This document shows, piece by piece, positions 22,866-44,031 of a DNA stretch of 64,000 bases; position 1 is the first letter of the stretch; every line of letters begins with the position of its first letter. Source of the stretch: a virus (taxonomy: Duplodnaviria > Heunggongvirae > Uroviricota > Caudoviricetes); IMG/VR virus record IMGVR_UViG_3300043172_000799, positions 92,944-156,943 of that record. The stretch is one strand, 5' to 3'. A model generated the notes under the pieces. The model had not been told where the DNA came from, did not search any database, and worked only from the letters and a program-made list of their open reading frames with translations. A program made the translations under genes and the position numbers.

Positions 22866-23628
22866 GTACTACCCCTCTACTAGCATCTAGTGAAAAATCC
22901 TTTTGGTATCTCTGCTCTGCATCTTTACGTGCCTTTATTGCATCAGATTTATTTTTAAACAGTTTTCTCAACACTCTCTTTCCCCCAACAGATAAACAGG
23001 ACTCCCATTTATTCTGCTTAATATTCCAACTAATCCCCTTTACTCCAGAAGTATTTCTCTTGCTTACCTTTGTATTCATACTATTTTGGCTACTTGAGGC
23101 TGTCCTCATATTTAGCTTCCTATTGTTCAAACCATCGCCATCTTTATGTTCTGGGATGATTCCTTCCTTAGTAGGAAGTATTATGGAATGCATATATACA
23201 CTTGAAGAGTAGTGCTTCCCTTTTGCATTTGCTATACTGTAGAAAACCCCACCAATACCCACAGTCCTACACCAACAATAGTCTTTTACTTTGATGTAAT
23301 CTTCCTTGTCCACAAGAGTACATCCATGCTCCCTATTGAAGAAAAATATTTTAATGTACTCACCACAATCTTCTATGCTATTTACCTTGGAGTTTGTTGT
23401 GGATGCTGTTTCCTTTTGCAAACACCCACAACTTTTTGTCAATCCAGACACTAGTTTGGTTCGCTTCACTGTGGTTATAGTAGCATTGAGGCAACTACAC
23501 CTACACCAGTATTTCCACTGTGAAGGGGGTACATCTTTATCATCTTTAACTTTACTATCTTCATCAACCTCAATTATGTGTAACCTTCCAAATCTCATTT
23601 CTTTTTCTAGATATTTAGAATATCTCAT
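22858..23628 (-). CDS. free-standing HNH-AP2 homing endonuclease
   Basis: Same architecture as 4511..5269: 'CRCSCL...SCGC'. HNH 'EHKDGDGLNNRKLNMRTASSSQN'. AP2 'SGVKGISWNIKQNKWESCLSVGGKRVL'. Confidence 0.8.
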   Translation of the reverse strand: MRYSKYLEKEMRFGRLHIIEVDEDSKVKDDKDVPPSQWKYWCRCSCLNATITTVKRTKLVSGLTKSCGCLQKETASTTNSKVNSIEDCGEYIKIFFFNREHGCTLVDKEDYIKVKDYCWCRTVGIGGVFYSIANAKGKHYSSSVYMHSIILPTKEGIIPEHKDGDGLNNRKLNMRTASSSQNSMNTKVSKRNTSGVKGISWNIKQNKWESCLSVGGKRVLRKLFKNKSDAIKARKDAEQRYQKDFSLDASRGVVRE

Positions 23629-27932: not shown

Positions 27933-28721
27933 TTATTCTCCTTTTCCTCTACTGTTATCAAAAGAGTGTTTGTTGAAGTACCTCTCTTCTGCTTCTTTTC
28001 TAACTTTAATAGCATCTTTTTTATATATAAAGGAACCTAAGTGTTTCCGTCCGGCACCCATACCTATACGAGCTATCCACCTCTTTTGTTTGTCATTCCA
28101 TACAACACCGGCAATTCCAGAGGTGTTATTTGACATCAAGGCTCTGTTCATATTGTTTTGGCTTCTTGTAGTAGGTCTTAGATTCCTGTTAATATTATTT
28201 AGACCATTTCCATCTTTATGATCAGGCATGTGTCCTTTCTCTGATGGGCATAGTATTTGATGCATCATAATAGTCTTCTTACCATAAAACTTTTGTTGAT
28301 CTATTGGGATGTTAGCAACAGCATAATATGTATTTGCCTTTGCTACTCTAAACCAGCAGATGCTTTTCACTTTATCATAATTTTCTTTATCTATAATAGC
28401 GTAATCATCACAGTTGAAGAAATAAATTTTAATGTAAGCACCACAATCTTCTGCAATGTTTATTTTGTGATTCTTAATGTGAGTTTTTCGTACAGCTTCC
28501 TTTTGTAGACAGCCACAACTCTTAGTTTTATTTCCTACCAAGTCTGCTCTTCTAATAGATCTTATACTCCCACTGGGACATGAGCATTTACATGAGTACT
28601 TCCAATCAGAAGGGCAGATATTTGCCTCGCCATTAATCTTACTATCCTCATCCACCTCAATAATGGTAAGTCTCCCAAATTCCATTCCTGCTTCTAAGTA
28701 CTTAGGATACTTTGCCATCAA
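27933..28721 (-). CDS. free-standing HNH-AP2 homing endonuclease
   Basis: 'CKCSCPSGS...SCGC'. HNH 'DHKDGNGLNNINRNLRPTTRSQNNMN'. AP2 'SGIAGVVWNDKQKRWIARIGMGAGRKHLGSF'. Confidence 0.8.
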   Translation of the reverse strand: MMAKYPKYLEAGMEFGRLTIIEVDEDSKINGEANICPSDWKYSCKCSCPSGSIRSIRRADLVGNKTKSCGCLQKEAVRKTHIKNHKINIAEDCGAYIKIYFFNCDDYAIIDKENYDKVKSICWFRVAKANTYYAVANIPIDQQKFYGKKTIMMHQILCPSEKGHMPDHKDGNGLNNINRNLRPTTRSQNNMNRALMSNNTSGIAGVVWNDKQKRWIARIGMGAGRKHLGSFIYKKDAIKVRKEAEERYFNKHSFDNSRGKGE

Positions 28722-29830
28722 ATAGCCTTTATCAACTTCTCTGAGGGGAAGTCCTCATAGTATTCCGCTACAGTCCCCACACTTCCATCTAGCCATTTAA
28801 AAGCAAGATCTTTATATGGTGTACCTACAACTAAGGTAGCAAATCTTTTTCTATTTGCTAATTCCTTATCAGAAAAGCTCTTAAGATATTTCAAGAATCC
28901 TTCTGCTTCTGCCATGTACAGATCATACTTATCCTTTACAGATGCCAAAACATTTTTGTATTCAGGAAAGTAAGTAAGCACCTCAGCCATCTCATTCTTT
29001 CTTATGATATCCAAAGCTCTCTTTTCTGTAAAGATCCCCTCTCCCCTCATATGGTGCAAATGAACGTATACTTCACCTTTAATCTTAATTCGATTGAAAT
29101 ATTTATCACAAACTACAATACCTTCTTTATCAGTCCCAAAATCTTGTACCAGATCTATACAATCCTCAAGATTGGCTAGATCATATTCTTGCAGACTACT
29201 CACTATAGCACTTATGGCAAGATGGTTCTTCTCTTCCCCTGTTTTATTGTCCTTGGAAGAAAGATAGAATATCTTTGGAGAATCATATCGTACCACCACT
29301 CTGTTAGAGGGAGTACACAATTCAAAGATATGCGTTTCATCTTCAAGATCATTAAGGAAGCTGAAATTCTGTACATTGTAATTAACCATTAAGGTATTGA
29401 TGAACAGTGCTCCAAAACTGTCAATAGGAATTCCTTCATCATTGAAAGTAAGTTCCTGAAGCCCTGCATTAAATCCATTTATTGTCCCATTGGTAGCAAT
29501 GAACCATCCACCATTTATACAGTATAGTTTTATGATGCTTCCATCTTCCTTAGAAGTAGCTCGTGCAGATTTCCAATCAATTTCTGGAACGTAACTCTCA
29601 CCATAATTTCCAAACTTATGAAAGGGATGACATACTATTTCCCAAGTACCTTCCCGAAGGATAATTCCTCTACATTCTCGCACTAATGGCTTGTGAAAAT
29701 CTGATTTAATTTGGTTATACTTAAATATGACTAATCCGTTATCTTTCTTAACCTTTATAGCATAATCTCTTTCTAAAAGCTCCTCATAGTTCTCTGGATG
29801 CTCTTTACAAAACTCTTGTATTTTTAACAT
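28718..29830 (-). CDS. rnlA: RNA ligase 1 (T4 RnlA-like)
   Basis: 'VRECRGIILRE' matches T4 Rnl1 'ALECRGIMFEM'. Motif I 'TSKEDGSIIKLY' matches 'TKEDGSLVS'. Confidence 0.8.
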   Translation of the reverse strand: MLKIQEFCKEHPENYEELLERDYAIKVKKDNGLVIFKYNQIKSDFHKPLVRECRGIILREGTWEIVCHPFHKFGNYGESYVPEIDWKSARATSKEDGSIIKLYCINGGWFIATNGTINGFNAGLQELTFNDEGIPIDSFGALFINTLMVNYNVQNFSFLNDLEDETHIFELCTPSNRVVVRYDSPKIFYLSSKDNKTGEEKNHLAISAIVSSLQEYDLANLEDCIDLVQDFGTDKEGIVVCDKYFNRIKIKGEVYVHLHHMRGEGIFTEKRALDIIRKNEMAEVLTYFPEYKNVLASVKDKYDLYMAEAEGFLKYLKSFSDKELANRKRFATLVVGTPYKDLAFKWLDGSVGTVAEYYEDFPSEKLIKAI

Positions 29831-30132: not shown

Positions 30133-31014
30133 TTAAAATTCAGTGTGGTAAATTCTATCATCAATATTAAATACGGTAAGTCCCATACTTTTCCATTCTC
30201 TGACCATAATCGGACGATCATCAAATACACCACACACAACAAAGCCCTTTCTGGCAACATGCTGGTCAAATAATTCCCGTTTAATAATAGCATCTTTCCT
30301 ACTGTCACCTTTGGCTCGCATGTATAATCCCTCGTATGGGATGATATAATCATCTAACCACTTTTCAGTAAGTTCTCGGCAAGAGCTATCTCTCCCAGAC
30401 ATAATGTAGATCGTATTTCCGGTTCTATGTAGTAGTCTCAAAATTAGAGCTACATCTACCCTTAACTTATCTTCTCCTACCCGATCCCACATAAAAGGTT
30501 TTCTACCATTCATTTGAGCAAGGGAGCCATCCAAATCAAAAATATAAAGTTGATTTAAATTTCCATCTCTGGGGTCTGCCTGATGCTTTTTGTTTTCCCT
30601 AACATCAAAATGTCTCATCCAAGTATTTTGAATGATACTAGCACCAAGACTATTCTCACGCTTAAGATCGTTCTCAATACATTTTTCCAAAGGCACATCT
30701 AGAAAACTTTTAATTTCAAATTCCACAGCCGGATAGTACCCTTTAATTACTGCCTTTCTCTCTTTGATTTTTTCCATACTTAAATTCATGGAATCAATAA
30801 TTGCATTCTTCCCACTATCCAAAATAGATAGAATCATTTCCTTCTCAACCTTGGAGATGAACTTCTCATTTTTGGCATTAAAATGAATATTATCAAACAT
30901 CAGCCGGAGATCGTCCCTGCATACTCGTTTCCAATTAGGGTCTTGAGCACGTTTCTTAGCATACGTACTCTTCCCTGATCCTTGAATACCACGCATAAAT
31001 AATACTTTACTCAC
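30133..31014 (-). CDS. pnk: polynucleotide 5'-kinase / 3'-phosphatase (T4 Pnk-like)
   Basis: N-terminal P-loop 'FMRGIQGSGKSTYAKK'. C-terminal HAD phosphatase 'LYIFDLDGSLAQMNGR...IMSGRDS...KGDSRKDAIIKRELF...VFDDRP' is collinear with T4 Pnk 'VIFDVDGTLAKMNGR...VVSGRES...QGDTRKDDVVKEEIF...AIDDRT'. Confidence 0.85.
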   Translation of the reverse strand: MSKVLFMRGIQGSGKSTYAKKRAQDPNWKRVCRDDLRLMFDNIHFNAKNEKFISKVEKEMILSILDSGKNAIIDSMNLSMEKIKERKAVIKGYYPAVEFEIKSFLDVPLEKCIENDLKRENSLGASIIQNTWMRHFDVRENKKHQADPRDGNLNQLYIFDLDGSLAQMNGRKPFMWDRVGEDKLRVDVALILRLLHRTGNTIYIMSGRDSSCRELTEKWLDDYIIPYEGLYMRAKGDSRKDAIIKRELFDQHVARKGFVVCGVFDDRPIMVREWKSMGLTVFNIDDRIYHTEF

Positions 31015-31264: not shown

Positions 31265-31336
31265 ACATTCTCCTTCATTCTTTTTAATAAGTATACCATG
31301 ATAATGTTTTCTTGTCAAGTATATTTGTTAAAAAGG

Positions 31337-33217: not shown

Positions 33218-33246
33218 AGAATAGCACATCTATTTAGTTTTGTCAA
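33218..33246 (-). promoter_or_regulatory. second copy of the promoter element (TTGACA-17-TATTCT)
   Basis: Identical 22-mer 'cacatctatttagttttgtcaa' with a weaker -10. Confidence 0.3.
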
Positions 33247-33371: not shown

Positions 33372-33941
33372 TTATTTTCCATAAGCCAGCCTTGGATACA
33401 GCATTCCTATCTTTGACTGTAAACCGGCTATGGTTGAATCATTGTAAATAACACTGTCAGGAACGATACTGTCTATTTCCATTTCAGAGGAATGTGTATC
33501 GATAGAGATAAGTCCCTCTCGTTCCAGTTTAATAATATGTCCTCCCATAGATTTAATGGTGTTGGCTTCATTTAAGAATCTAACATCAGATATAACTACA
33601 TTTGGCTTCTCTGTAAAAGAATCATACCAGTACTGAAATCTTTTTACCCAGATATCGGACCCTATCAATTCCTTGAATAATGGTAATATCTCTTGTAGCC
33701 TTTGCCTGAATAATTCTGTGCCCATAGCTTGTTGTGCCTGTCTGGGAGAGATATTCCATCTAGGGTCAATTGTCTCTTTATATTTTCCATTAACCCATTC
33801 ATCATCCCAAAGGAAGATTTCTGCCACTGATGTTTTAATTGGATCTGCAAATTTGTATCTGGTAAATCCAAATTGATCTATCAAATAATCTGCTACCTCA
33901 TCTTTCCCTGATCTTTTTTTTCCTACTATTCCTAGTATCAT
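33372..33941 (-). CDS. deoxynucleoside monophosphate kinase (T4 gp1-like)
   Basis: 'MILGIVGKKRSGKDEVADYL...YKFADPIKTSVAEIF' matches T4 gp1 'LIFLSGVKRSGKDTTADFI...YQLAGPIKDALAYAW'. Confidence 0.75.
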   Translation of the reverse strand: MILGIVGKKRSGKDEVADYLIDQFGFTRYKFADPIKTSVAEIFLWDDEWVNGKYKETIDPRWNISPRQAQQAMGTELFRQRLQEILPLFKELIGSDIWVKRFQYWYDSFTEKPNVVISDVRFLNEANTIKSMGGHIIKLEREGLISIDTHSSEMEIDSIVPDSVIYNDSTIAGLQSKIGMLYPRLAYGK

Positions 33942-34933
33942 TCCATAACCACCTTATCCAAATAATTCATAAACCACATTCGTGCTTTCACACTCATGGC
34001 TTTCCCTACATCTTTAGGCTCCAAACCATTCTCATTTAATACATCCATTTCTTCCATAATAATATCTCTGTTAACCCACTTAAGGAAATCACTCATCATC
34101 TGGATTCTGGGTGTTTCAGATGCAGAAGTGAAAACCTGTTCAATAGCCTGATTCAATCTGTTCTCTGTGACTGCATATTCCACAAACTCATTGACTGAAT
34201 TCATCTTTTCAATGTCCACAGGAGCTACTGTCTTAACTTTAGATGCCGAGTGCTTCTCCCCCTTAGTTTTAAAAATATGATCTCTGTGTCCATTCTCATC
34301 ATAGTGTGACCACACAATCCCTTCCCCAATACCATGTGCATCAAAATGCTTTGAGAAAGGACATTCCTCCTCCACTTCATCCACTAACTTAATCATTTCT
34401 GCCTGTGCAATCTGTGAATAGTTAAAATCAATCTCCAGTTCATATGTGAGGAAATCAAAGATATTATACACATCAAGATCCTCATTCATAAAATCAGGCT
34501 GTGTGTAGAAATGATCTGCTTCATCTTCAATTCCTGTATATTTGATTGCAAAGACCACAAATCGTTTAGAGAGATGATTTAAAGCAACTCCTGTCTGGAT
34601 ATTTCCACCACACCATTCTCCGAAGATAGTGGTGATATATCCATCTTTATGTAGATAATCAAATATTTTATACCAAAAATCTTTTCTATTGCTGGCAAAG
34701 AAAGCAAATCCTGCATTATCTTTCTCTGGAGTAATTATATTCTTTCTACTCTGATACCAAATTCCATCTGCCGGTGTATGGCATATCCCTGCATTCGTTC
34801 CGTGGAGCTTAATTGCCCCTTCAAAAGTTAGCGTAGGGTGTGTAGCTCTAACCTCTCCTTCTGGCACATGGCATACATTTCTAATGATGTGCCGGTACTG
34901 TCCTATTTTTGTAAAACTAATAAATTTTTTCAT
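33938..34933 (-). CDS. RNA ligase 2 (T4 Rnl2-like)
   Basis: Motif I 'AIKLHGTNAGI' matches Rnl2 'EKIHGTNFSL'. 'IFGEWCGGNIQ' matches 'VFGEFAGPGIQ'. Motif V 'IFKTKGEKH'. 331 aa, similar in length to T4 Rnl2. Confidence 0.8.
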   Translation of the reverse strand: MKKFISFTKIGQYRHIIRNVCHVPEGEVRATHPTLTFEGAIKLHGTNAGICHTPADGIWYQSRKNIITPEKDNAGFAFFASNRKDFWYKIFDYLHKDGYITTIFGEWCGGNIQTGVALNHLSKRFVVFAIKYTGIEDEADHFYTQPDFMNEDLDVYNIFDFLTYELEIDFNYSQIAQAEMIKLVDEVEEECPFSKHFDAHGIGEGIVWSHYDENGHRDHIFKTKGEKHSASKVKTVAPVDIEKMNSVNEFVEYAVTENRLNQAIEQVFTSASETPRIQMMSDFLKWVNRDIIMEEMDVLNENGLEPKDVGKAMSVKARMWFMNYLDKVVME

Positions 34934-35148
34934 ACATCCTCCCCATCTTGTAAAACATCTTTTAATACGGCTCTTTGTACATCACTCCAACTAGCAACCT
35001 CTTCTAGTATCTTAGGCTCCTTCATTAGCAAGCACATAATGATTTCTGTTGCTTCTTCTGTTCCATATTTCTCCACAATAGCTTCTGCCAATTCATCCCA
35101 TGACCATGCATTAGGATCTTCTAATAGTTTTTCAAGTGCTTCTACCAT
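34930..35148 (-). CDS. hypothetical protein
   Basis: 72-aa ORF. Confidence 0.3.
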   Translation of the reverse strand: MVEALEKLLEDPNAWSWDELAEAIVEKYGTEEATEIIMCLLMKEPKILEEVASWSDVQRAVLKDVLQDGEDV

Positions 35149-35149
35149 C

Positions 35150-35545
35150 TTATATATCCTTTTTATGTACAGCAGTGTACCCTTTTACATAAACATTGAA
35201 ATTAAAATATAATTCTTCTATAGAATCAGCTTCACAAGATATAGTGAGGCTGGAGCAAAAGAACATATGCTCCCATTCTACAGAAATGTTTTTAGATACC
35301 ATGTAACCGTGAAATGATCCGAGCAACTCATTCAGATAGTCACATTCGGTATTTTTATCATAAAATATAAAAGCTGTTTCCACTCCAAGCATATACTTTT
35401 TTGTTTTCTTATCATACACGATATCAATATCATTAGCTTGGTATAAACTAGCTTCACCACTACAAGAGCTTATTCCCCAGATGAATTTTAGATTTCTTTC
35501 AGCATAACTAAAATAATCCCTAATTTTGTATATTAAACTTCTCAT
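35150..35545 (-). CDS. hypothetical protein
   Basis: 131-aa ORF. Confidence 0.35.
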   Translation of the reverse strand: MRSLIYKIRDYFSYAERNLKFIWGISSCSGEASLYQANDIDIVYDKKTKKYMLGVETAFIFYDKNTECDYLNELLGSFHGYMVSKNISVEWEHMFFCSSLTISCEADSIEELYFNFNVYVKGYTAVHKKDI

Positions 35546-35874
35546 CTATTTCTCCTTTGCAATACTTTCCAATATTTCCTGGTACCCTTTCTATCAACAT
35601 ACTCCAAAATTACTTTTGCCCACATTTTCGGGCTAAGTAACTTAATTCCTGTTCTAGAGTCAAGTTCTTCCCAATAGACTTTTGGAGTGTAGTACCCACC
35701 TTCTAGAAGATAAGTTAAAGATTGTCCTGCCATCCACTCTTTTCTACCTGTAAATCTTTCCTCCAGCTTATCTAATACAGATAGGATTACACCATCTATA
35801 TTAGAATAAATGTTGGATGTAGTAACTTTGATAGCAGATCTGCATCCTTCTTTTCCAACTAGGTACACAATCAT
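35542..35874 (-). CDS. hypothetical protein
   Basis: 110-aa ORF. Confidence 0.35.
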   Translation of the reverse strand: MIVYLVGKEGCRSAIKVTTSNIYSNIDGVILSVLDKLEERFTGRKEWMAGQSLTYLLEGGYYTPKVYWEELDSRTGIKLLSPKMWAKVILEYVDRKGTRKYWKVLQRRNR

Positions 35875-36260
35875 GGCTTTCCCTCATACTTTTCTTTCAA
35901 TTCTAAGTACGTAGCCTTTTCTTTAGCTTCCTTTAGAGCCTTGGCTTTCTTATCATTTTGAACTTGTACATTCATCACTTTCTTTTTAGCTTTTAATACC
36001 TCTGCTTTTTTCTCCTCTCTATACTCCTGATTGTATAAAAAATTAATATCTAAGTAGAAACCATAATCCTCATGACCACCATAAGCCCAGCTCTCTTCAC
36101 CACTAAATGTAATTCCATTACTACCTAATTCAGTCACAAAGAGGTGTTTCAATCCATCTATTTTTTTAATATTATCATTATACCATTGTAGAGCTTCTTC
36201 TGCTTCCTCACAAACTTTATCATACTCTTCTAAGAACTCATAATATCTTTCTTCAGTCAT
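35871..36260 (-). CDS. hypothetical protein
   Basis: 129-aa ORF. Confidence 0.35.
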   Translation of the reverse strand: MTEERYYEFLEEYDKVCEEAEEALQWYNDNIKKIDGLKHLFVTELGSNGITFSGEESWAYGGHEDYGFYLDINFLYNQEYREEKKAEVLKAKKKVMNVQVQNDKKAKALKEAKEKATYLELKEKYEGKP

Positions 36261-36448
36261 AGATCCTCCTTCTCTGTTAGATCTATGTATGGTTGTAATT
36301 CTTTTAGTTTCTGCTCAGTCCTTTTTATTAATTGTTCGTACTTTTCCTTTTGCTCTGAAGCCCATGCTCCCTCTAATTTCCCTGTGGAGATGACCAGTAA
36401 ATACTCTAGTCTATTTTGTTCTTCAATTATTATATCAGCTATTATCAT
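36257..36448 (-). CDS. hypothetical protein
   Basis: 63-aa ORF. Confidence 0.3.
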   Translation of the reverse strand: MIIADIIIEEQNRLEYLLVISTGKLEGAWASEQKEKYEQLIKRTEQKLKELQPYIDLTEKEDL

Positions 36449-37174
36449 TTACTCCTCCATATCACAATTAACCAAATTATCTATAACATTTGGTTCTTTT
36501 GAAAATATAGGTGCTTCATTTAAAAACTCCCATCCATTCTCAGTCTTTACACAGAAATTTCCATTCTTCCATTTATCTTTGTAGTCTTCCCATGTAATTT
36601 GGTGCTCATCCCACAACATCTGTTTGATGTCATTAGTATTCTTTTTATGCATTTTACTATGAGAGAACACAGATTGTCCTGCAAGCTGAATGGAATTCCT
36701 TTTCCAATCCATACTTCTCCACACAAAATAATTATTCACTTCTTCACGGGGAATGTTGAATACTCTGCTATCGAAATAAGCAGTCTTTGAGGAATTATAT
36801 ATACTGCTGTAGTAATGATTAAACTCCGCAGTAGCAATAGAAGCAGAGACACTACACATCTTCTGTATACCATAATCAAACCATGCATCCGTTGTAAGTT
36901 TGTCATAATCTGTGATTAGAATGGAAATTTCATCTGATTGCATATATGCACATTTAGCTCCCTGAATTTCTTCACAAAGCTTGATGGTGGTTGCTCTCAT
37001 CATAGCATTTAAATTTTCATCGAACGGTCTATCCATACCTTTTGTAATAGAATGAAAGCACTTCCCATCTAAGCGACAGATAACTGGTGTTCTCCTAGTT
37101 AAATACGTTCTAGCTCTCTTTTCATAATTATCTTTCATTCTATCTGCAATTTGTGTTTTATCCATCGACCTCAA
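36449..37174 (-). CDS. Thg1-like protein (tRNA-His guanylyltransferase family, 3'-5' nucleotide addition)
   Basis: 'RTPVICRLDGKCFHSITKGMDRPFDENLNAMMRATTIKL...AYMQSDEISILI' is collinear with Thg1 'IVVRIDGKKFHEF...KPNDENALKLMNACA...AFGESDEYSFIL'. Confidence 0.75.
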   Translation of the reverse strand: MRSMDKTQIADRMKDNYEKRARTYLTRRTPVICRLDGKCFHSITKGMDRPFDENLNAMMRATTIKLCEEIQGAKCAYMQSDEISILITDYDKLTTDAWFDYGIQKMCSVSASIATAEFNHYYSSIYNSSKTAYFDSRVFNIPREEVNNYFVWRSMDWKRNSIQLAGQSVFSHSKMHKKNTNDIKQMLWDEHQITWEDYKDKWKNGNFCVKTENGWEFLNEAPIFSKEPNVIDNLVNCDMEE

Positions 37175-37478
37175 ACTCCTTTTTTAATTCTGAATACTCA
37201 AATCTTCTCTTTTCTTTTTCTCGATCTTCCCTTATCTGCGCATTCTTCATTCTGCTTTCATATTCTGTATCAGTTTCAAGACGTTTGCCCCACAGTTGTA
37301 AATTAGAGCTATCCCAACTATCTTCAGTATTTACGTAAATGGAGTTAATCTTTCCGGCATGTTTATTTAGGATGGTGTCACAGTATTCCTTTATCTCTTC
37401 TAATGTTTTACCATCTAATTCAGAGGTAAAATCCCCTGATAGCATTACTGCTGTCTGTAGTCTAGGCATTACATCCAC
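37158..37478 (-). CDS. hypothetical protein
   Basis: 106-aa ORF. Confidence 0.3.
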   Translation of the reverse strand: MDVMPRLQTAVMLSGDFTSELDGKTLEEIKEYCDTILNKHAGKINSIYVNTEDSWDSSNLQLWGKRLETDTEYESRMKNAQIREDREKEKRRFEYSELKKEFEVDG

Positions 37479-37637
37479 CCTAGTAGCAACGGACTTAAAA
37501 AGAAAATACTACATAGCACAGCCCAACATATAAGTAATGTTAGTATTCCTCTATCTATCCTTCTGACTTGTTTCATAACGAATTTTCCAAATTTAGAAAA
37601 ATCTATTTCAATCGTAACTTCTTTCATTGGTTCCTCC

Positions 37638-38141
37638 TTAAAATCCAAATACTTCATCAAATGTATACTCATACAGTACATTCTGGTAGATACTAACAGA
37701 GCCATGTTGAGCACTATAGTTTACATTATTATATCTCACTGTCAAGTGATTACCTATCCCACCATTCACCACAGTACGACCAGTGGTGCCATTAGATAAT
37801 ACGTAGTCTGTCGTATCTACAATAACCAAACTCATCTTAATCCCAAGTGCTTCCTTAGCAATGCACATGAAAATTAAACTAAACTCATCACAGTCACCAA
37901 AGCCTCGCATAACAGCTACTCTAGGGGAATCTATTTGCTCTCCTATATCCGACTTATAAGTTATAAGTCTTCGATTCATATCTCCTATCTGCTTGAAGTT
38001 ATGCACTTCACTTAGATCATATTCTGCAAAATCATAATATTCCACATCGTCTAAAAAACTATACATGGCCATATCAATAAAGTTGAGCATACGACAGCCA
38101 CTAAGAGATACAAGTACAACTAAAATAATAATTTTTTTCAT
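37638..38141 (-). CDS. lipoprotein with transglutaminase-like Cys-protease core
   Basis: Start refined to 'MKKIIILVVLVSLSGC' (AGGAGG 6 nt upstream; lipobox LSGC). 'GDCDEFSLIFMCIAKEALG' resembles the transglutaminase-like catalytic Cys region. Confidence 0.4.
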   Translation of the reverse strand: MKKIIILVVLVSLSGCRMLNFIDMAMYSFLDDVEYYDFAEYDLSEVHNFKQIGDMNRRLITYKSDIGEQIDSPRVAVMRGFGDCDEFSLIFMCIAKEALGIKMSLVIVDTTDYVLSNGTTGRTVVNGGIGNHLTVRYNNVNYSAQHGSVSIYQNVLYEYTFDEVFGF

Positions 38142-38160
38142 ATTATTCCTCCTAAGTACT

Positions 38161-38189
38161 ATACTACTACATATTTGGAGTTTTGTCAA
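38161..38189 (-). promoter_or_regulatory. putative promoter (TTGACA-17-TAGTAT)
   Basis: Minus strand TTGACA 38189..38184. -10 TAGTAT 38166..38161. Upstream of the lipoprotein gene. Confidence 0.3.
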
Positions 38190-38557
38190 GTGCTATTCTC
38201 CCCATGATACAAACAATCTTCGCTAACCCATTTCCAGTCTATCCCAATAAGCTCCCTATTATCCATTTTTGGACAAGTACAGCCAGATAATTTCAGCCAA
38301 TAAGTATGGTAGTTTTTGTCTCTATCAAAACCCCATGCATCTTGAAGTGTAAATTCCAAATCAGTTAATCTTTCTAATATCACTTTAGCTTTGAAAGATG
38401 TTAATAGTTTTGCTTCTGCAAGAGTTTTATCCATATCCAGCAGGATACGAATTTCAATTCTAATCTCTATAATTTTAGGAAGACTCTCCCAGACATTGTT
38501 CTTCTCTAAAAGTCTTTCATTTACATTTAATATGTGCCCTTTATATACTATTTCCAT
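38186..38557 (-). CDS. hypothetical protein
   Basis: 123-aa ORF. Confidence 0.35.
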   Translation of the reverse strand: MEIVYKGHILNVNERLLEKNNVWESLPKIIEIRIEIRILLDMDKTLAEAKLLTSFKAKVILERLTDLEFTLQDAWGFDRDKNYHTYWLKLSGCTCPKMDNRELIGIDWKWVSEDCLYHGENST

Positions 38558-39103
38558 TTATTTATCCTCTAACATATTTCTGGCATTATTTAGTTCCTCA
38601 GCAGTATGAGGTGTACCTGTTCCGTTCAAACTTAAATAAAGCTCAATAGCTTCTTTCTCGGACTTAACTTTAAGCATATGTACTCTAAAATCTACACAAC
38701 CCCTAATCTCATACTCATCTGCAAATCTCCCAAAAACTTTTATTTCATGTTTGAGAAATCTACGTACAGCCGTTGTTCTCTGTAATCCATCAATTAAATA
38801 TAGTTTAACATGGAAGTCTTTATTACTACCAAACTCATTGAAATATTGCTCTGCTATAATAACTTCTGTAGCTGAACCACCCTGTAAGGGGGCTGTAAAG
38901 CAGTACTCAATGTAGGCAATTTGCTGTTCCTCTGTCCAAACGTGACCTCTTTGCCATTCTGGTACAATATATTCTACATAAGATTTGTCTTCTTTTTCAA
39001 AAGCAAAGCTAGTAGAATCATCTTCAAACTTCCATCTAAAGGAACACCCATTCCACGTCCAATTTAAGTTGGGTTGAAGATCTCTCACATTTATCTTACC
39101 CAT
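38558..39103 (-). CDS. DUF262 / ParB-like nuclease-domain protein (GmrSD N-terminal domain family)
   Basis: 'EWQRGHVWTEEQQIAYIEYCF' and 'LIDGLQRTTAV' match the two DUF262 signature blocks (QR..vW...q...LI.S and DGQQR). Confidence 0.55.
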   Translation of the reverse strand: MGKINVRDLQPNLNWTWNGCSFRWKFEDDSTSFAFEKEDKSYVEYIVPEWQRGHVWTEEQQIAYIEYCFTAPLQGGSATEVIIAEQYFNEFGSNKDFHVKLYLIDGLQRTTAVRRFLKHEIKVFGRFADEYEIRGCVDFRVHMLKVKSEKEAIELYLSLNGTGTPHTAEELNNARNMLEDK

Positions 39104-39104
39104 T

Positions 39105-39269
39105 ATTTTATTCCCTTGATTGCTTTCTCAATCTTATTCCAAAGCTTTGCTTCCGATCTTTCATTGATATAAAGAATGGGCTTTCCATTTATCTTAATAA
39201 CGAAAAGAGGATCTTCATCATTTTTTATTTCTTTTGTATTATGTTTCTTTACAGTAATTGTTCTTGCCA
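39105..39269 (-). CDS. 54-aa hypothetical protein (not in ORF track)
   Basis: ATG 39269 with GGAGGA 5 nt upstream. Stop overlaps the DUF262 start (TAATG). Confidence 0.3.
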
Positions 39270-39370
39270 TCTATTCCTCCGTTATATCTGTCTCTTCCCA
39301 TTTATCTGCTTTCTCCAAACTATCCTTCCTTCTACCAAACTCGGTTAATTCTCTTTCCTCTCCACAAGCA

Positions 39371-40231
39371 CTACATCTCTTCACTTATCAGCCTCTCCTT
39401 GCTGTACTTCCACAACACTTTAACTGGATACTCGCCCTGAAGAGTTCCAGGTAGTGGGATCATAGCATTCTTGTTTACAACTACCTCATAACTCTTTTCC
39501 TTAGTAATGACCTTCTCATCTGTTCTTTCTATTGGATACATATCTTTAGCTTTTGGGCTATTACACAAACATGTCCACAATATTCCCAGTCCCTCATTGC
39601 AAATTTTATACGGATCAAAATCCAAAGTATTTCTGTCCAGCAATAAATGAAATCCAGATTTTGTATCTATCCAGAAATATCTGAGTTTGGTTCTTTCTAA
39701 ATATTCCTCTAACAATTCTGGAGCATTAAAATCGTCTGGCACATCAAAATCAATATCAAGCCAATGCTTTGTACCTCTATTTCTTTGGTAACAATTCATT
39801 AGCTCCACATCTAGTTTATTGAACTTATCTTTGAAGCTGATTGCATTATTACTAGACAATTCGTATTGCCAATCATTCACCTTCCGATTAAACTCTTGTA
39901 AAGACTTCAATGAATTACTGGGATTAATATTAAAGTAAATCACCATACATTTAGCAGGAATAGGTAGCGCATTCTTTGATAAATACCCTCCTTCAGCTAC
40001 TTCATACTTTCTAATTGTTCTTAGAAATCTAGTCCATTCCCGTTTTCTCACAATAGCTCTACCAAACATCTCAGCTCTAGTGATGTGAAATTTCTCTCTT
40101 TCTTCTGCATTTAAGTATTTCTTCCTACAAGAAAGTGAGAGGAAGAACACTTCAAAATCTTTCAATTCAGGAACTATTTTAGTATAAAATTTAAACAGCT
40201 CCTCTTCATCGTAAATAAAACTATAGTTCAT
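39371..40231 (-). CDS. hypothetical protein; weak archaeo-eukaryotic primase (AEP)-like motifs
   Basis: 'HWLDIDFD' (hhhDhD) followed by 'TKSGFHLLL' (sGxxHhh) and 'LDFD', in AEP order. Fold not established. Confidence 0.3.
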   Translation of the reverse strand: MNYSFIYDEEELFKFYTKIVPELKDFEVFFLSLSCRKKYLNAEEREKFHITRAEMFGRAIVRKREWTRFLRTIRKYEVAEGGYLSKNALPIPAKCMVIYFNINPSNSLKSLQEFNRKVNDWQYELSSNNAISFKDKFNKLDVELMNCYQRNRGTKHWLDIDFDVPDDFNAPELLEEYLERTKLRYFWIDTKSGFHLLLDRNTLDFDPYKICNEGLGILWTCLCNSPKAKDMYPIERTDEKVITKEKSYEVVVNKNAMIPLPGTLQGEYPVKVLWKYSKERLISEEM

Positions 40232-40240
40232 TTTCTCCCC

Positions 40241-40717
40241 CTAATCAAACCATGTGCTTTTGATATTATTGTCAACAATGAACTTAGAGAATACCTCAAA
40301 ACCTTTCCATGTATCAATATGGTAGGTATCAATAAAGAAGTCTTCGGGATTAGTTTCTAATAATTTATTTTCCCGAATTTTGCAAATTTTATCTAAATCC
40401 TTTAAGGGAGTTCCTTGCTCAAGTAATTCATCCAAGTATTTCATTATAGCTTTATTAGAGCCTCTAGTCTCAGAAGGGGAAATGTTACAGCCATGTCCAT
40501 CAGCTCTTATTTCTAGTGCTTTTTCTACACTATTAAACAGCTTCAGAGCTTTAGTCACAGGCATCTGCCCGTAGATTACCATGTAATAGTTCTGGAAATG
40601 TGCTGTAAAACCGTTTAAGGCATATACATCAATAGATGAACCTATTGGCATATAGTAGTGTTTCTTCCAACCACTAGCTTTCATTAATGTTTTAAATGTA
40701 TATGTGTCTTTTCTCAT
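40241..40717 (-). CDS. hypothetical protein
   Basis: 158-aa ORF, ATGA-coupled to the HD hydrolase gene. Confidence 0.35.
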   Translation of the reverse strand: MRKDTYTFKTLMKASGWKKHYYMPIGSSIDVYALNGFTAHFQNYYMVIYGQMPVTKALKLFNSVEKALEIRADGHGCNISPSETRGSNKAIMKYLDELLEQGTPLKDLDKICKIRENKLLETNPEDFFIDTYHIDTWKGFEVFSKFIVDNNIKSTWFD

Positions 40718-41292
40718 TTTGTCATCCTTATATCCATGTAGTCTACGTCAATCCTGTATCTCTCAGCTAGCCAATTCACATGAGAAGCAATCCGATATGC
40801 AAACAGTTTATGAATGTGATCAGGATTATGCCCAATTCTATTCTGGTATACAGAAGAAATTAAAGCTTCTGTATCTATTACATACTTTGTGATAAACTTC
40901 AAAGGGATTCCATTCATTTCTAGAAACTGTACATTATGAAGTCTATCCACTAACTTAATTGTGAGAGCATCATCAGACATTCTCATCATTTTATCATATA
41001 AATATTCCAGTTTGGTTATTCCTTTGGGAATGATGGAAGTAAGTTCATCAACTAAGTTTCCCACTTTACTTCCAAATTCTTTATGGATCATTTCAGAAGT
41101 GATGTCAGTGTCTTCCACTACATCATGGAGCAATCCTGAAGCAACCAAGACGGGATCTTTCGTGAAATCTTCTAATATTCTAGCTACGAATTTAGGATGA
41201 ATAAAGTAAGGTAATTCCACCCATTTTCTTTCCTGTCCTTCGTGTGCTTCCTGAGCAAATGTGTATGCTCTATTTACCAAATTTTTTAACAT
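40714..41292 (-). CDS. HD-domain small alarmone ((p)ppGpp) hydrolase, RelA/SpoT-type
   Basis: 'FAQEAHEGQERKWVELPYFIHPKFVARIL...VASGLLHDVVEDTDITSEMIHKEFGSKVGNLVDELT' matches the SpoT/Mesh1 HD hydrolase consensus 'A..aH.GQ.Rk.G.PYi.Hpl.VA.iL......aALLHDvvEDT..t.eei...FG..Va.lV'. Confidence 0.75.
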   Translation of the reverse strand: MLKNLVNRAYTFAQEAHEGQERKWVELPYFIHPKFVARILEDFTKDPVLVASGLLHDVVEDTDITSEMIHKEFGSKVGNLVDELTSIIPKGITKLEYLYDKMMRMSDDALTIKLVDRLHNVQFLEMNGIPLKFITKYVIDTEALISSVYQNRIGHNPDHIHKLFAYRIASHVNWLAERYRIDVDYMDIRMTK

Positions 41293-41326
41293 TAAATACC
41301 TCCTAGATAATCTCTATTCTCTTGTT

Positions 41327-41911
41327 TCAAAATTCCCTCACTATAATCTCATATATTTCTTTCCAGTTATCTACTCTCTGCATACCATTAATTACCGCAG
41401 GATAATCCTTATTATGCCCCTGATTAAATAATATCCTTCTTCCATTAAACTCTTCCATATTTAATGGTCTATCGTCTACTATAAAATCCCCAGACACCAG
41501 ACTTTTATTAGTTCCAAAGAAGAAGTTCCTACTATCCAAGAATGGAAAATGACGTTCAAGCCACTTAACTTTATATGGTGCAATATCCCAGTTCCCTGAT
41601 ATAGAGGATACTACGAATATTTCCACCATCTTTTCCAAATACCCAACAATTTCTATAGCATCATCCATTGGCAACATATTATCCCACAGAGTTGTTACTA
41701 CTCCATATCTGTTTTCTTCTGGCTTCAAATAAGTGTAGATAGTATTCCCACATTTAGGTTTGGTGAACTTAGCTATATCCCAATCTGTGATTATCTTAGT
41801 ATCCAAGTTATCATCCCAGACATTGTTGTATACTGCTATCCATGGGGTAAGTAAATCTCCCAATGTATCATCGAGATCCAAGATCAATCTTTTTCTTTTC
41901 ATCCATCCCAC
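41327..41911 (-). CDS. HAD-family 5'(3')-deoxyribonucleotidase-like phosphatase
   Basis: Motif I 'LILDLDDTL'. Motif IV-like 'FIVDDRP'. Confidence 0.45.
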   Translation of the reverse strand: MGWMKRKRLILDLDDTLGDLLTPWIAVYNNVWDDNLDTKIITDWDIAKFTKPKCGNTIYTYLKPEENRYGVVTTLWDNMLPMDDAIEIVGYLEKMVEIFVVSSISGNWDIAPYKVKWLERHFPFLDSRNFFFGTNKSLVSGDFIVDDRPLNMEEFNGRRILFNQGHNKDYPAVINGMQRVDNWKEIYEIIVREF

Positions 41912-42363
41912 TCCACTAATGTAATTTCAATATCAGGTGTTACCTCATTGATTATCTCTTTGATTTTATTCCAATTCCCACCGGCTAATCCAGCACCTAT
42001 TTTAGGTATCCCAACTACGTCTCCTCTAAAGTCATAATTAATAGTGGTAAATACTTCTCGTATAGCCATATAGTCAACTGGCTTTTCACCTCTATAGTCA
42101 TATTGTGTATAGGCATTGATTACTAGAAGATTCCCAACTGTCCCTAAATAATTAGTAAAAGCACAAGTATACGTCCCAAGTTTGTCTTTATCTCCTTTTT
42201 TTGAGTCCTTATCAATCTGGTAAGCATCTGGAAAATTTCTCTTAATTCCAAAGGCAATTCCCTTGCCCATTGTGCAAAAGCAATTACTCCCATGTACAAT
42301 GATATCAAAATTTCCCTGTTTCGCCAATTTTATTAAATCACCCTTTATTACTTTAGTTATCAC
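41899..42363 (-). CDS. macro-domain protein (ADP-ribose binding/processing)
   Basis: 'FDIIVHGSNCFCTMGKGIAFGI' matches 'VNAAN..L..GgGVa.AI'. 'GIPKIGAGLAGGNW' matches the macro 'iafPaIsTGiyG.p' block. Confidence 0.65.
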   Translation of the reverse strand: MITKVIKGDLIKLAKQGNFDIIVHGSNCFCTMGKGIAFGIKRNFPDAYQIDKDSKKGDKDKLGTYTCAFTNYLGTVGNLLVINAYTQYDYRGEKPVDYMAIREVFTTINYDFRGDVVGIPKIGAGLAGGNWNKIKEIINEVTPDIEITLVEWDG

Positions 42364-42948
42364 TTAGTACTCCTTTCTTTTCCACTCTAGCATTACAGCA
42401 CTCACTACATGTCCTCTATGCCAATTTGTAACCCTTTCTCGATAATTGTTTCTATCTCTCGTAGATTCATTTCTGCCTTTCTGTTTAAAGTCGGCTACAA
42501 AGTAATCACCAACTTCCTGTGATTCAAATATATTTTTAGTTATATAAATGTACCTAGTTAGTATTTTATCTTTTATCTTTTGAGATGGGGATGTGATAAA
42601 TAAAATAAAATCCTCACCATCAAAATGCTTCACTACACAATATTCATAGTGATCAAAAACCTGTCTGCTACGTGTAACTATATTCCCATCGGAATCTGTA
42701 GTTACATAAAACTCAGTTCTGGTTACTGATTTTGAGTCTTCAATATAACCAACATGTTCTTCATCATATAATCGTTCTTTTATTGTCCCTTCTTTTATAG
42801 GAAGCTCAAAAAACCGAACAAACAGAAATGTTACCAAACTTATAACAGCTAATATACTGCATATAATGGCTATAGTTTTCCCATAGTTTCTAAAAAATCT
42901 TTTAATATCTTCTCCTGTAATTTCAATTTCAACTTCGTTTTTACTCAT
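42364..42948 (-). CDS. membrane-anchored hypothetical protein
   Basis: TM 'TIAIICSILAVISLVTFLFV' near the N-terminus. Confidence 0.35.
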   Translation of the reverse strand: MSKNEVEIEITGEDIKRFFRNYGKTIAIICSILAVISLVTFLFVRFFELPIKEGTIKERLYDEEHVGYIEDSKSVTRTEFYVTTDSDGNIVTRSRQVFDHYEYCVVKHFDGEDFILFITSPSQKIKDKILTRYIYITKNIFESQEVGDYFVADFKQKGRNESTRDRNNYRERVTNWHRGHVVSAVMLEWKRKEY

Positions 42949-42974
42949 TTTTTTACTCCTTGTGTTTAATACTG

Positions 42975-43358
42975 CTACAGTAATTTATACTCACTAGTCA
43001 TATCCTTTACAAGAATACTTCTATAGGGACCAATGGCTATGCATGTCACAGTTGGTATTCCATGAAACTCTGTCTTGCCACAGTCAGTTATGATGGCATA
43101 TGGTATATCTAATCTCTTGGCTCTTTCTGCTAAAGAGTGGATATCAGACTCGGAATCACATCCCAATACTATTTTGGTAAAGATACCATTAATCCACTCC
43201 TTCTGCTCAGGAGTGACTGATATTATTAAGCAGTCATCTTCTAGCCAATTACCCTGATCTAAAATTACCTTCATGGAAGCATGTGCTACCTGAGATGCTA
43301 TTTTACCTTTTCTCATTTTAAGATCTTTTCTTACCACTATGGTCTGTTGTGTTAGCAT
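42975..43358 (-). CDS. peptidyl-tRNA hydrolase, PTH2 family
   Basis: 'QTIVVRKDLKMRKGKIASQVAHAS...GIFTKIVLGCDSESDIHSLAERAKRLDIPYAIITDCGKTEFHGIPTVTCIAIGP' is collinear with PTH2 '[25 protein letters not shown]...KVVLKV.dee.L..l...A...gLp..li.DAGrTqi..gs.TVLgiGP'. Confidence 0.85.
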   Translation of the reverse strand: MLTQQTIVVRKDLKMRKGKIASQVAHASMKVILDQGNWLEDDCLIISVTPEQKEWINGIFTKIVLGCDSESDIHSLAERAKRLDIPYAIITDCGKTEFHGIPTVTCIAIGPYRSILVKDMTSEYKLL

Positions 43359-43588
43359 TTATTCACTCCAATACTAAATATTTTCCCATCTTTTGGCAAG
43401 CCCAATTCCTCCCGTGAGTAACGTGTATTGAAATACGCTGTCACTTCACTAGGATTATCTGGATTACCATAAACAGGGTGATTGTATCTTGCCTCCGCAG
43501 GAAATCCTGCTTTACATAAGGAGCAGTCTATTTCTTCATTATTTATTTTTAGTTTTTTAATCCAAGGTATTTTATAATCATATTCCAT
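43352..43588 (-). CDS. hypothetical protein
   Basis: 78-aa ORF. Confidence 0.3.
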   Translation of the reverse strand: MEYDYKIPWIKKLKINNEEIDCSLCKAGFPAEARYNHPVYGNPDNPSEVTAYFNTRYSREELGLPKDGKIFSIGVNKC

Positions 43589-43596
43589 TTTGGCTC

Positions 43597-44031
43597 CTAA
43601 TCTAATATTCCATTTTTGATTTCTGTATACACTTCCAGATCGTTCTTTTTGGCTAGGCTTTCCATATATATTTTAGCCTTATCCTTATGCTCATATTGCC
43701 AGTATTTTTCAGTGGCTAGATCAAATACAGAACTTAGAAACTGTGGTCTAATTGTGATGCAAGTAAGTCTAAGTTGTCCTGCAAAATGCAGAATTACCCA
43801 ATTTCTTCTTGGCTTTAACTTGTCAATCCTATTGAAAATGTTAGAAAGTTGAGAAAAGATAAACTTGGTGAGACATTTCCCAACATCAGTATTTCCTTTC
43901 TTGATTTGGTCTTTTTTGTAAAATTCATATTGCTTCATCACTTTAGGCGTGCTCCATTCTGTTCCCATAAAAAACTCCTCATACCATACTTTATTAGAAG
44001 CATAGCACAAGGAGTATCTTTTGTCAAGCAC
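43597..44031 (-). CDS. hypothetical protein
   Basis: 144-aa ORF. Confidence 0.35.
   Translation of the reverse strand: MLDKRYSLCYASNKVWYEEFFMGTEWSTPKVMKQYEFYKKDQIKKGNTDVGKCLTKFIFSQLSNIFNRIDKLKPRRNWVILHFAGQLRLTCITIRPQFLSSVFDLATEKYWQYEHKDKAKIYMESLAKKNDLEVYTEIKNGILD

Follow-up and report, generated by a model that had tools for sequence, protein, structure and literature searches.

A block of minus-strand genes at positions 36,449 to 43,358 of the 64,000-nucleotide stretch of DNA analysed here (the window; positions 92,944 to 156,943 of IMG/VR virus record IMGVR_UViG_3300043172_000799, Caudoviricetes) is probably a tRNA-centred repair and translation-rescue toolkit, which is conserved in its lineage and lies interleaved with replication and nucleotide genes at the promoter-proximal end of the early genes of a large, uncultured tailed phage. 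This reading is carried by the identified domains and their intact catalytic motifs, by promoter motifs, by synteny and by co-occurrence statistics. A theme of translation rescue and tRNA repair had been proposed for the block in an earlier inspection of its letters alone (the sequence-only reading), and we find that the theme is real and reaches past the block to an Rnl2-type RNA ligase, the polynucleotide kinase-phosphatase Pnkp and an Rnl1-type RNA ligase.

Enzymes of the block and their catalytic motifs

Profile searches with Pfam, PHROG, PDB and NCBIfam uphold Thg1, PTH2, the HD hydrolase, macro and DUF262, and all nine domain calls of the sequence-only reading hold. The corresponding genes, preceded by those further along on the same strand that belong to the argument, are listed below, with protein lengths in amino acids (aa).

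28718..29830, minus strand: T4 Rnl1-type RNA ligase (profile matches)
30133..31014, minus strand: T4-type polynucleotide kinase-phosphatase Pnkp (AAA_33 + HAD_PNKP), with a predicted promoter of its own at 31318
33372..33941, minus strand: deoxynucleoside monophosphate (dNMP) kinase, last gene of predicted operon 2 (profile matches)
33938..34933, minus strand: Rnl2-type (PF09414) RNA ligase, 331 aa, outside the block, in a predicted operon shared with the Thg1-like gene
36449..37165, minus strand: Thg1-like protein (TLP, 3'-5' RNA polymerase) of the bacterial type, 238 aa (Pfam, PHROG, PDB)
37638..38141, minus strand: lipoprotein with lipobox LSGC and a putative transglutaminase/papain-like Cys-His core, 167 aa (five homologues, model)
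38558..39103, minus strand: stand-alone DUF262 (GmrSD N-terminal, ParB-like) protein, 181 aa (Pfam, PHROG 1583)
39371..40231, minus strand: AEP-fold (primase-polymerase-like) protein, 286 aa (structure; family without a Pfam model)
40714..41292, minus strand: stand-alone RelA/SpoT-type HD hydrolase of the small alarmone hydrolase type, 192 aa (Pfam HD_4, PDB)
41327..41902, minus strand: NT5C-family HAD 5'(3')-deoxyribonucleotidase, 191 aa (Pfam PF06941, PDB 3bwv)
41899..42363, minus strand: small macro domain of a BT1257-like subfamily, 154 aa (Pfam, PHROG, PDB and DarG profiles)
42364..42948, minus strand: membrane protein with one N-terminal hydrophobic helix (about residues 24-46), 194 aa (sequence)
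42975..43358, minus strand: PTH2-type peptidyl-tRNA hydrolase, 127 aa (Pfam, PDB alignment)

The Thg1-like protein matches PF04446 at 1e-28 (100 bits, cut-off 29.2) and PHROG 4717 at 2e-84, and it aligns over its full length with the TLP of B. thuringiensis (BtTLP; PDB 4kgk, 2e-52), compared with 4e-7 to 7e-6 for the Candida and human Thg1 structures. Its catalytic carboxylates are intact, as RLDG (the RxDG motif) and QSDEIS (the SDE motif) align with BtTLP, and residues D33, S77, D78 and E79 are invariant among 32 homologues. Homologues are found in 164 GenBank phage records at identities below 60%, many of them annotated as tRNA-His guanylyltransferase. TLPs carry out template-dependent 5'-end repair of truncated tRNA (PMC3061083, PMC3701042, PMC4820378), and by analogy the phage protein could rebuild truncated tRNA 5' ends. 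The genes for Pnkp and Rnl1 lie 6-14 kilobases (kb) past the block, at 28.7-31.0 kb, and 3-9 kb further along than the toolkit genes of the predicted operons. The Rnl2-type ligase has a counterpart of 73% identity that adjoins Thg1 in L238, one of the viral loci compared here, which carry labels of L with a number.

The PTH2 protein matches PF01981 at 2e-29 (102.7 bits, cut-off 23) over profile positions 2-115 of 115, and S. solfataricus Pth2 (PDB 1xty) at 3e-18. Its K19 and the Asp of TDCGKT align with the positions of Lys18 and Asp86, which we take to be the catalytic residues of the S. solfataricus enzyme, and both are conserved. Since its scores lie below the NCBIfam equivalog cut-offs (NF003314, 97.2 versus 126; TIGR00283, 75.6 versus 82), we call it a divergent, phage-type member. 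Homologues occur in 33 GenBank phage records, many already annotated as such. Enzymes of this type free tRNA of peptidyl or N-acetyl-aminoacyl groups (PMC9241777; PMC7824862), and Pth reverses acetylation by TacT (PMC9241777).

The HD hydrolase matches HD_4 at 2e-14 (54.2 bits, cut-off 27.2), with the motifs LLHDVVEDT (HDVVED) and DRLHNV (DRLHN), and in the PDB it resembles Rel hydrolase domains (5e-19), MESH1 (1e-13) and small alarmone hydrolases. It has no synthetase or regulatory domains, the TIGR00691 match (7e-28) covering positions 1-123 of 687 only. Stand-alone alarmone hydrolases of phages neutralise toxSAS toxins (PMC7229694), and some alarmone hydrolases reverse pyrophosphorylation of the tRNA CCA end (10.1101/2021.04.30.441581). 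By analogy, the enzyme in the window may break down (p)ppGpp and (p)ppApp and clear tRNA CCA ends of the 3'-pyrophosphate attached by toxSAS toxins. In the related locus L002 the hydrolase gene lies directly beside that of a CCA-adding enzyme, a position consistent with action at the tRNA 3' end.

The macro domain scores slightly below the Pfam gathering cut-off (Macro, 4e-4; 20.7 bits versus 22). Despite that score its fold is certain at the level of profile and structure matches, which comprise PHROG 335 (5e-55), PDB 2fg1 (3e-7) and DarG profiles; DarG gives the best profile match (PADLOC DarG, 1.5e-12; NCBIfam antitoxin_DarG, 1.9e-12; macro part only), and PDB 5m31/5M3E match at 3e-6. The glycine-rich ADP-ribose loops are present (MGKGIA and IGAGLAGG), and the catalytic Asn is kept, as N27 in HGSNCFCTMGKG aligns with N22 of DarG and N23 of AdfM. 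The position of the catalytic Lys (K80 in DarG, K78 in AdfM) is occupied by a Gln, in YTQYDY, which is residue 87 when the ORF is numbered from its GTG start. Seven viral homologues from the subfamily share this Gln, as apparently does BT1257, judged by eye from a pairwise alignment. PDB 5M3E is the macro domain of T. aquaticus DarG2, with N22 and K80 as its catalytic residues, and AdfM of PhiKZ (gp104; N23, K78) counters DarT2 (PMC13309987). We reject an assignment of the window protein as an orthologue of DarG or AdfM, since Gln replaces the catalytic Lys, and the same replacement leaves an anti-DarT role unproven.

A cargo slot downstream of the DNA polymerase gene

In four related loci, the region 3' of the DNA polymerase gene holds similar genes in a different selection and order (percentages are protein identities):

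L238, after the polymerase gene: AEP (62%), HD_4 (48%), o123, lipoprotein, Thg1 (73%), Rnl2 (73%), kinase, Pnkp (58%), Rnl1 (59%)
L239, after the polymerase gene: radical SAM, Thg1, SpoU, AEP, RNA ligase, dNMP kinase, NT5C, Pnkp, Rnl1, PTH2 (46%)
L011, after the polymerase gene: HD_4, DUF262 (65%), o123, Thg1 (66%), RlaP, Gad2-like, RNA ligase, macro (57%), dNMP kinase
L002, after the polymerase gene: HD_4, CCA-adding enzyme, RlaP-like, NT5C, o123, lipoprotein, RNA ligase

The slot itself is therefore conserved in the lineage while its contents are shuffled, and it is a cargo slot, not a fixed cassette. In exchange, relatives carry genes for a CCA-adding enzyme, RlaP, a Gad2-like protein, a SpoU methylase and radical-SAM proteins. 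At 5847-7991 of L239, Thg1 lies between genes for a radical-SAM protein and a SpoU-type RNA methyltransferase, an arrangement that hints at further tRNA-modifying cargo in the slot.

Among viral contigs more widely, we compared three sets of 80 IMG/VR viral loci, scoring RNA-repair families within 10 kb of an anchor gene and applying Fisher tests. An RNA-repair family was found near Thg1 in 38 of 80 loci (p = 5e-8) and near PTH2 in 33 of 80 (p = 3e-6), compared with 7 of 80 for the polymerase control. The neighbours of Thg1 included Pnkp (19), a PHA02142-type ligase (13), RlaP (13), a CCA-adding enzyme (12) and a SAK HAD protein (10), and 44 of the 64 RNA-repair genes lay within 0-4 kb of it; those of PTH2 included Rnl1 (13), RlaP (11), Rnl2 (7), Pnkp (7), HD_4 (6) and macro (5). 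Individual loci show closer pairs still. Thg1 stands directly 3' of Rnl2 in L081 and L086, and Rnl1 is adjacent to PTH2 in L239. PTH2 is sporadically paired with HD_4 (about 0.6 kb apart, L318), with a Gln-type macro gene (about 0.6 kb, L270) and with RlaP (overlapping, L280); in L242 it abuts a different, Lys-type macro gene, and in L268 a Gln-type macro gene overlaps Rnl2.

Within the genome itself, clustering was assessed with a scan statistic in which 12 clear genes of repair or counter-defence type, a classification made post hoc, were placed randomly on the 79 kb annotated early arm. For the 6.9 kb of the block, the strict set gave 4 of 12 genes (p = 0.45) and the set enlarged with DUF262 and NT5C gave 6 of 14 (p = 0.036); for a wider stretch of 14.7 kb that includes Rnl2, Pnkp and Rnl1, the values were 7 of 12 (p = 0.058) and 9 of 14 (p = 0.007). 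The comparative evidence for linkage is stronger than the clustering within the genome. Related cargo recurs downstream of the polymerase in four relatives; the accumulation in this genome does not lie clearly above chance.

Genome setting and predicted operons

The window is contained in Logan contig SRR11832402_6080 (102,160 bp), window positions being contig positions minus 27,944, and near-identical pieces of the genome are present in JGI samples, one of them within a 168-kb contig. All genes of the tightly packed 64-kb window lie on the minus strand and GC content is flat (0.32-0.38). Megablast of the block against GenBank phages gave no match, and an Rfam search of the window gave none either. 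We found no tRNA genes in about 80 kb of the contig, nor in the flanks (about 18-23 kb each) of the four relatives. The sequence-only reading described the genes as mostly coupled, which is fair, as 8 of the 15 gene junctions in the block abut or overlap in the gene calls.

A generic scan for promoters and terminators showed no enrichment over shuffles. A promoter motif, TTGACA-N14-TGnTAnnnT, was derived from a repeat family found in the window; in its strict form it matches eight times on the coding strand of the window and not at all on the opposite strand, and a 26-nucleotide version matches eight times with 0.48 expected by chance. Together with a site at 38,189, all nine sites lie upstream of start codons, eight of them mapped to intergenic gaps, and in the eight sites inspected a GGAGG-type ribosome-binding site and an ATG follow. 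The elements concerned are:

-35 starts at 58343, 57691, 44027, 38189, 33246, 33107, 31318, 16763 and 9909, minus strand: predicted sigma70-type promoters with extended -10 (consensus matches)
43969..44027, minus strand: predicted boundary element 3' of the DNA polymerase gene (hairpin and overlapping promoter)
38161..38189, minus strand: predicted internal sigma70-type promoter TTGACA-17-TAGTAT, followed by GGAGG and the lipoprotein ATG at 38141

At the boundary element, an 18-bp hairpin with a T-run, terminator-like in appearance (44015-43969), overlaps the promoter TTGACA-N14-TGC-TATGCT (44027-43999), downstream of which a GAGGAG ribosome-binding site and an ATG at 43968 are found. The hairpin would terminate transcripts of the polymerase gene. 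The promoter at 38,189 is weaker than the one at 44,027, and the next promoters are those at 33,246, 33,107 and 31,318. Two operons are predicted from these elements. Operon 1 (43,968 to 38,186) would comprise an open reading frame (ORF) of 123 aa, o78, PTH2, the membrane protein, macro, NT5C, the hydrolase, o158, AEP, o55, DUF262 and o123; operon 2 (38,141 to 33,372) would comprise the lipoprotein, two small ORFs, the Thg1-like protein, five small ORFs, the Rnl2-type ligase and the dNMP kinase. With these units, the natural block would start about 600 nucleotides earlier than the seven kilobases first delimited and extend about 3 kb beyond them.

The extended -10 sigma70-type promoters and strong Shine-Dalgarno sites suggest early transcription by the host polymerase, and the strength of the promoters fits early expression. 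The host is probably a low-GC bacterium with strong Shine-Dalgarno sites, and the same features suggest, by inference alone, a low-GC Gram-positive. The promoters at 33246 and 33107 share an identical 22-nucleotide core at a spacing of 139 nucleotides. Relatives show the same promoter pattern on the coding strand only, and in L238 one such promoter lies directly after the polymerase gene.

Other genes of the block and the early region

The block also holds genes of a more ordinary kind. The NT5C protein matches PF06941 at 3e-36 (125.4 bits, cut-off 24.8), with the putative 5'(3')-deoxyribonucleotidase 3bwv as best structure (4e-15) and HAD motif I, DLDDT, aligned to DMDEV of 3bwv. Together with the dNMP kinase it may serve nucleotide-pool management, an ordinary early function. 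The AEP-fold family yields a structure of very high confidence although it lacks a Pfam model, with invariant residues D159xD161xD163 and T190xxG193xH195 (DxD and sGxH-type motifs). Its member here is the sole primase-like protein detected on the contig; no DnaG-type primase was found among the called contig genes, nor in ten further large ORFs compared with PHROGs. The protein is probably replicative, a putative primase. The family occurs in at least 63 IMG/VR contigs and has no fixed gene partner over 56 viral loci, where its neighbours are mixed (Metallophos, GIY-YIG, helicases and a few RNA-repair genes); in loci L096-L158, calcineurin-like phosphoesterases, with 10 of the 149 ORFs nearby, and GIY-YIG endonucleases are the most frequent. 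As homologues of AEP and Thg1 share small contigs, we considered AEP as a partner of Thg1, and rejected this since Thg1 lies within 10 kb in 0 of 63 AEP loci.

The DUF262 protein matches GmrSD_N/DUF262 at 4e-12 (47.2 bits, cut-off 33.2) and PHROG 1583, and carries DGLQR, a DGQQR-like motif. Searches with Pfam, PHROG and PADLOC gave no second domain and no DUF1524 HNH nuclease, and the PDB gave no sequence match. A GmrSD type IV restriction enzyme was rejected, as the protein has 181 aa and the C-terminal nuclease domain was not hit. PADLOC gives it weak matches only, to NsnA and PD-T4-2_A, and beyond these shows no sign of a phage-borne defence system in the block, a candidate we likewise discarded.

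The structural model of the lipoprotein is poor because only five homologues are available; the homologue in L238 has a faint Transglut_core match, and the protein probably acts in the cell envelope. Neither the membrane protein nor o158 matched any family or had relatives in about 230 viral loci, and one metagenome scan likewise gave no relative of the membrane protein. The smaller genes of the two predicted operons are:

34930..36448, minus strand: five small ORFs of 63, 129, 110, 131 and 72 aa, the 110- and 72-aa ones conserved in L002
37158..37627, minus strand: two small ORFs of 52 and 103 aa (gene calls)
38186..38557, minus strand: o123, 123 aa, with a Cys/His-rich C-terminus, in the same slot in L002, L011 and L238
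39103..39270, minus strand: o55, 55 aa (gene call)
40241..40717, minus strand: o158, 158 aa, overlapping the HD gene by 4 nucleotides
43352..43588, minus strand: o78, 78 aa, overlapping the PTH2 start by 7 nucleotides
43597..43968, minus strand: first gene of predicted operon 1, 123 aa, with a 30%-identical homologue in the same slot of L011

The DNA polymerase upstream of the block (44165-46960) is a family-A enzyme with an N-terminal UDG-like domain and at most 25% identity to cultured-phage polymerases among the matches listed. It is 32-34% identical to the polymerases of relatives among L238, L239, L010 and L011, whereas neighbouring genes in those relatives are 45-73% identical (Thg1 73%, Rnl2 73%, helicase about 50%, clamp loader 54%), which suggests replacement or unusually rapid evolution of the polymerase in one sub-lineage. 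Its identity is 75% in L002 and 63% in L159.

Between the Rnl2/dNMP kinase genes and Pnkp lies a Band_7 (SPFH) protein of 424 aa (31361-32635), homologues of which stand near Thg1 or the AEP family in a few viral contigs. Genes resembling HNH homing endonucleases are scattered over the early region (27933-28721, 22858-23628 and 4511-5269), one of them directly 3' of Rnl1, and the ribonucleotide reductase of L238 contains an intein with a homing endonuclease. Elsewhere, an apparent NAD-salvage pair is formed by the adjacent genes for NAPRTase and NAD synthase, at 62627-63793 and just past the window end (L003 9115-11167); close to them are genes for a Ser/Thr protein kinase (59419-60960) and for a PP2C phosphatase (60947-61714). 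A 428-aa Gad2-matching protein (nucleotidyltransferase-like, PF26128; 23920-25206) adjoins thymidylate synthase, and a T7 gp5.9-like protein (PF25708) is encoded at 2570-3229; the two genes, at a distance from the block, are candidates for an anti-defence role. The same arm carries a SAK_2 HAD phosphatase at 5.3 kb, and a DUF8224 protein of 680 aa (54136-56178; PHROG 1735, 1e-259) is conserved in L010 and L011.

Discussion

How could such a toolkit work? We infer the enzymatic activities, the early timing and the purpose of undoing host anti-phage tRNA damage from the domains, motifs and gene order described above. Two operons read by the host RNA polymerase would start after the polymerase gene and span 44,027 to 33,372. 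In the T4 paradigm Pnkp and Rnl1 heal and seal anticodon-loop nicks, and Rnl2-type ligases seal nicks within structured RNA; the phage homologues may do the same. The TLP would refill missing tRNA 5' nucleotides against the 3' strand (PMC3061083, PMC4820378). The alarmone hydrolase would remove (p)ppGpp, (p)ppApp and the toxSAS-added 3'-pyrophosphate of CCA ends, and PTH2 would rid tRNA of peptidyl or N-acyl-aminoacyl groups. The Gln-type macro domain, which recurs beside RNA-repair genes in other phages, could handle ADP-ribose. The AEP putative primase, NT5C and the dNMP kinase would be ordinary replication and nucleotide genes, accompanied by envelope and other proteins.

Several points weigh against this interpretation. 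For about half of the block genes there is no connection with tRNA or with any stress. The clustering within the genome is only weakly above chance and depends on the choice of genes (p from 0.45 to 0.007), and the promoter predictions are based solely on consensus matches. The control contigs of the neighbourhood comparison come from smaller phages, so the enrichment may partly reflect genome size; outside the lineage, moreover, Thg1 is rarely found near HD_4 (1 of 80 loci), macro (2 of 80) or PTH2 (0 of 80). Finally, we know of no host system that truncates tRNA 5' ends against phage.

A bolder form of the same idea would take the stretch from the polymerase to Rnl1 as a complete, co-expressed repair line for every vulnerable tRNA site, with the proteins that travel along as new RNA-repair components. 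The TLP would serve the 5' end, Pnkp, Rnl1 and Rnl2 the anticodon loop, PTH2 the acyl bond, and the alarmone hydrolase, or the CCA-adding enzyme in relatives, the 3' CCA. The new components would be the Gln-type macro domain, the DUF262-only protein, o123 and perhaps the AEP-fold protein, and the macro domain might be an RNA/tRNA de-ADP-ribosylase or an ADP-ribose-phosphate processor. We regard this extension as speculative and improbable.

What the sequence-only reading proposed was a dedicated counter-defence island, selected as a unit, with one enzyme for each toxin chemistry: Thg1 for tRNA cleavage, the alarmone hydrolase for toxSAS, the macro domain for DarT or ART toxins, and PTH2 for GNAT toxins. 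The enzymes are all present with intact motifs in a block predicted to be early, PTH2, HD_4 and macro recur as close neighbours in unrelated viral contigs, and there is precedent in alarmone hydrolases against toxSAS (PMC7229694), AdfM against DarT2 (PMC13309987) and Pth against TacT (PMC9241777). Nonetheless, we consider this proposal unlikely. No compositional boundary sets off a discrete island at 36,449-43,358, as the window is minus-strand throughout, GC is flat and the predicted operons overrun both edges. Nor is the idea that each activity reverses a distinct insult supported: none maps to AEP, NT5C, the lipoprotein, the membrane protein, DUF262, o123 or o158, which leaves about half of the genes without such a link, and the macro subfamily carries Gln at the catalytic Lys of DarG and AdfM. 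The differing subsets in relatives show that the set is not passed on as a whole, and the strict scan statistic is no better than p = 0.45. That same value, together with the differing cargo, could be taken to mean that there is no functional module at all and that unrelated accessory and metabolic genes are simply packed on one strand of the early region. The tight, all-minus arrangement of the window would agree with this, as would the scatter of accessory genes over it (gp5.9-like at 2.6 kb, SAK_2 HAD at 5.3 kb, Gad2-like at 24 kb, NAD salvage at 62-64 kb). However, HD_4, Thg1, RNA ligase, Pnkp and Rnl1 are similarly ordered in the slot of genomes only 45-73% identical at the protein level, unrelated viral contigs show an excess of RNA-repair genes around Thg1 and PTH2, and the pairs Rnl2-Thg1 (L081, L086), Rnl1-PTH2 (L239) and HD_4-CCA-adding enzyme (L002) and the macro/Rnl2 overlap (L268) recur, which together make a chance assembly quite unlikely in our view.

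Alternatively, the genes might support the phage's own translation, with the Thg1-like protein maturing phage tRNA-His, PTH2 clearing peptidyl-tRNA from minigenes or heavy late translation, and the hydrolase blocking the host stringent response so that ribosome synthesis continues. Eukaryotic Thg1 adds G-1 to tRNA-His, and removal of ppGpp would favour phage growth regardless of any toxin. Pth is, moreover, required upon peptidyl-tRNA drop-off (PMC9241777). However, with no tRNA genes in about 80 kb of contig or in the flanks of four relatives, the TLP is unlikely to mature a phage tRNA-His; the protein is a bacterial TLP (2e-52 to BtTLP), not a G-1-adding Thg1, and the neighbours of Thg1 are healing and sealing enzymes, not tRNA genes. 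This alternative therefore appears highly improbable to us.

If a tRNA-centred toolkit is the correct reading, the slot provides a compact and probably early candidate set of enzymes for how phages keep tRNA usable under several host attacks. It also yields leads by guilt of association, namely the Gln-type macro subfamily, the DUF262-only protein and the AEP-fold family without a Pfam model. The current picture would remain unchanged, as the parts and the logic have already been laid out for jumbo phages, and phage alarmone hydrolases, AdfM and T4 Pnkp/Rnl1 already have experimental support singly.

How does the toolkit compare with known systems? In T4, Pnkp and Rnl1 heal and seal tRNA cut by the PrrC anticodon nuclease. 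Homologues of both are found here at 28.7-31.0 kb, and in L238 directly after Thg1-Rnl2; T4 has no counterpart to the TLP, the Rnl2-type ligase, PTH2 and the alarmone hydrolase that accompany them in this phage, and no PrrC-like target is known in the host. With the bacterial TLPs (BtTLP, 4KGK; PMC3061083, PMC3701042) the window protein has its full-length likeness and the carboxylates in common, the difference being that it is phage-encoded. Similarly, the hydrolase resembles the small alarmone hydrolases of Salmonella phages PVP-SE1 and SSU5 (PMC7229694) in its single domain, its size of about 190 aa and its HD...ED motif, but its context differs, with a CCA-adding enzyme adjoining the gene in relative L002. 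The macro domain is, like AdfM (PMC13309987), a small stand-alone phage macro protein, and shares the Asn and both glycine-rich loops with AdfM and the DarG macro domain (5M3E); in contrast to these it has Gln for Lys, its nearest solved structure is BT1257 (2fg1), its similarity to AdfM is marginal, and its neighbours are RNA-repair genes rather than DNA-related ones.

The closest parallel is the jumbo-phage synthesis of Iyer, Anantharaman, Krishnan, Burroughs & Aravind 2021 (PMC7824862), which already describes the repertoire and the same logic, so that the statement in the sequence-only reading that only fragments of such sets had been discussed before was wrong. That repertoire includes Rnl1/Rnl2, PNK-HAD, RlaP, a CCA-adding enzyme, Thg1, PTH2, an HD alarmone phosphodiesterase, Macro and NAD salvage, and the same parts are found here, including NAPRTase-based NAD salvage, with RlaP and the CCA-adding enzyme in relatives. 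The present phage differs in its size of 102-168 kb, in belonging to no defined jumbo group and in that no tRNA genes were seen. Whereas PMC7824862 presents these components as a repertoire of the whole genome, with Thg1 as a sporadic member, here Thg1, PTH2, the hydrolase and the macro domain are found within a span of 7 kb, distributed over two predicted early operons directly after the polymerase gene.

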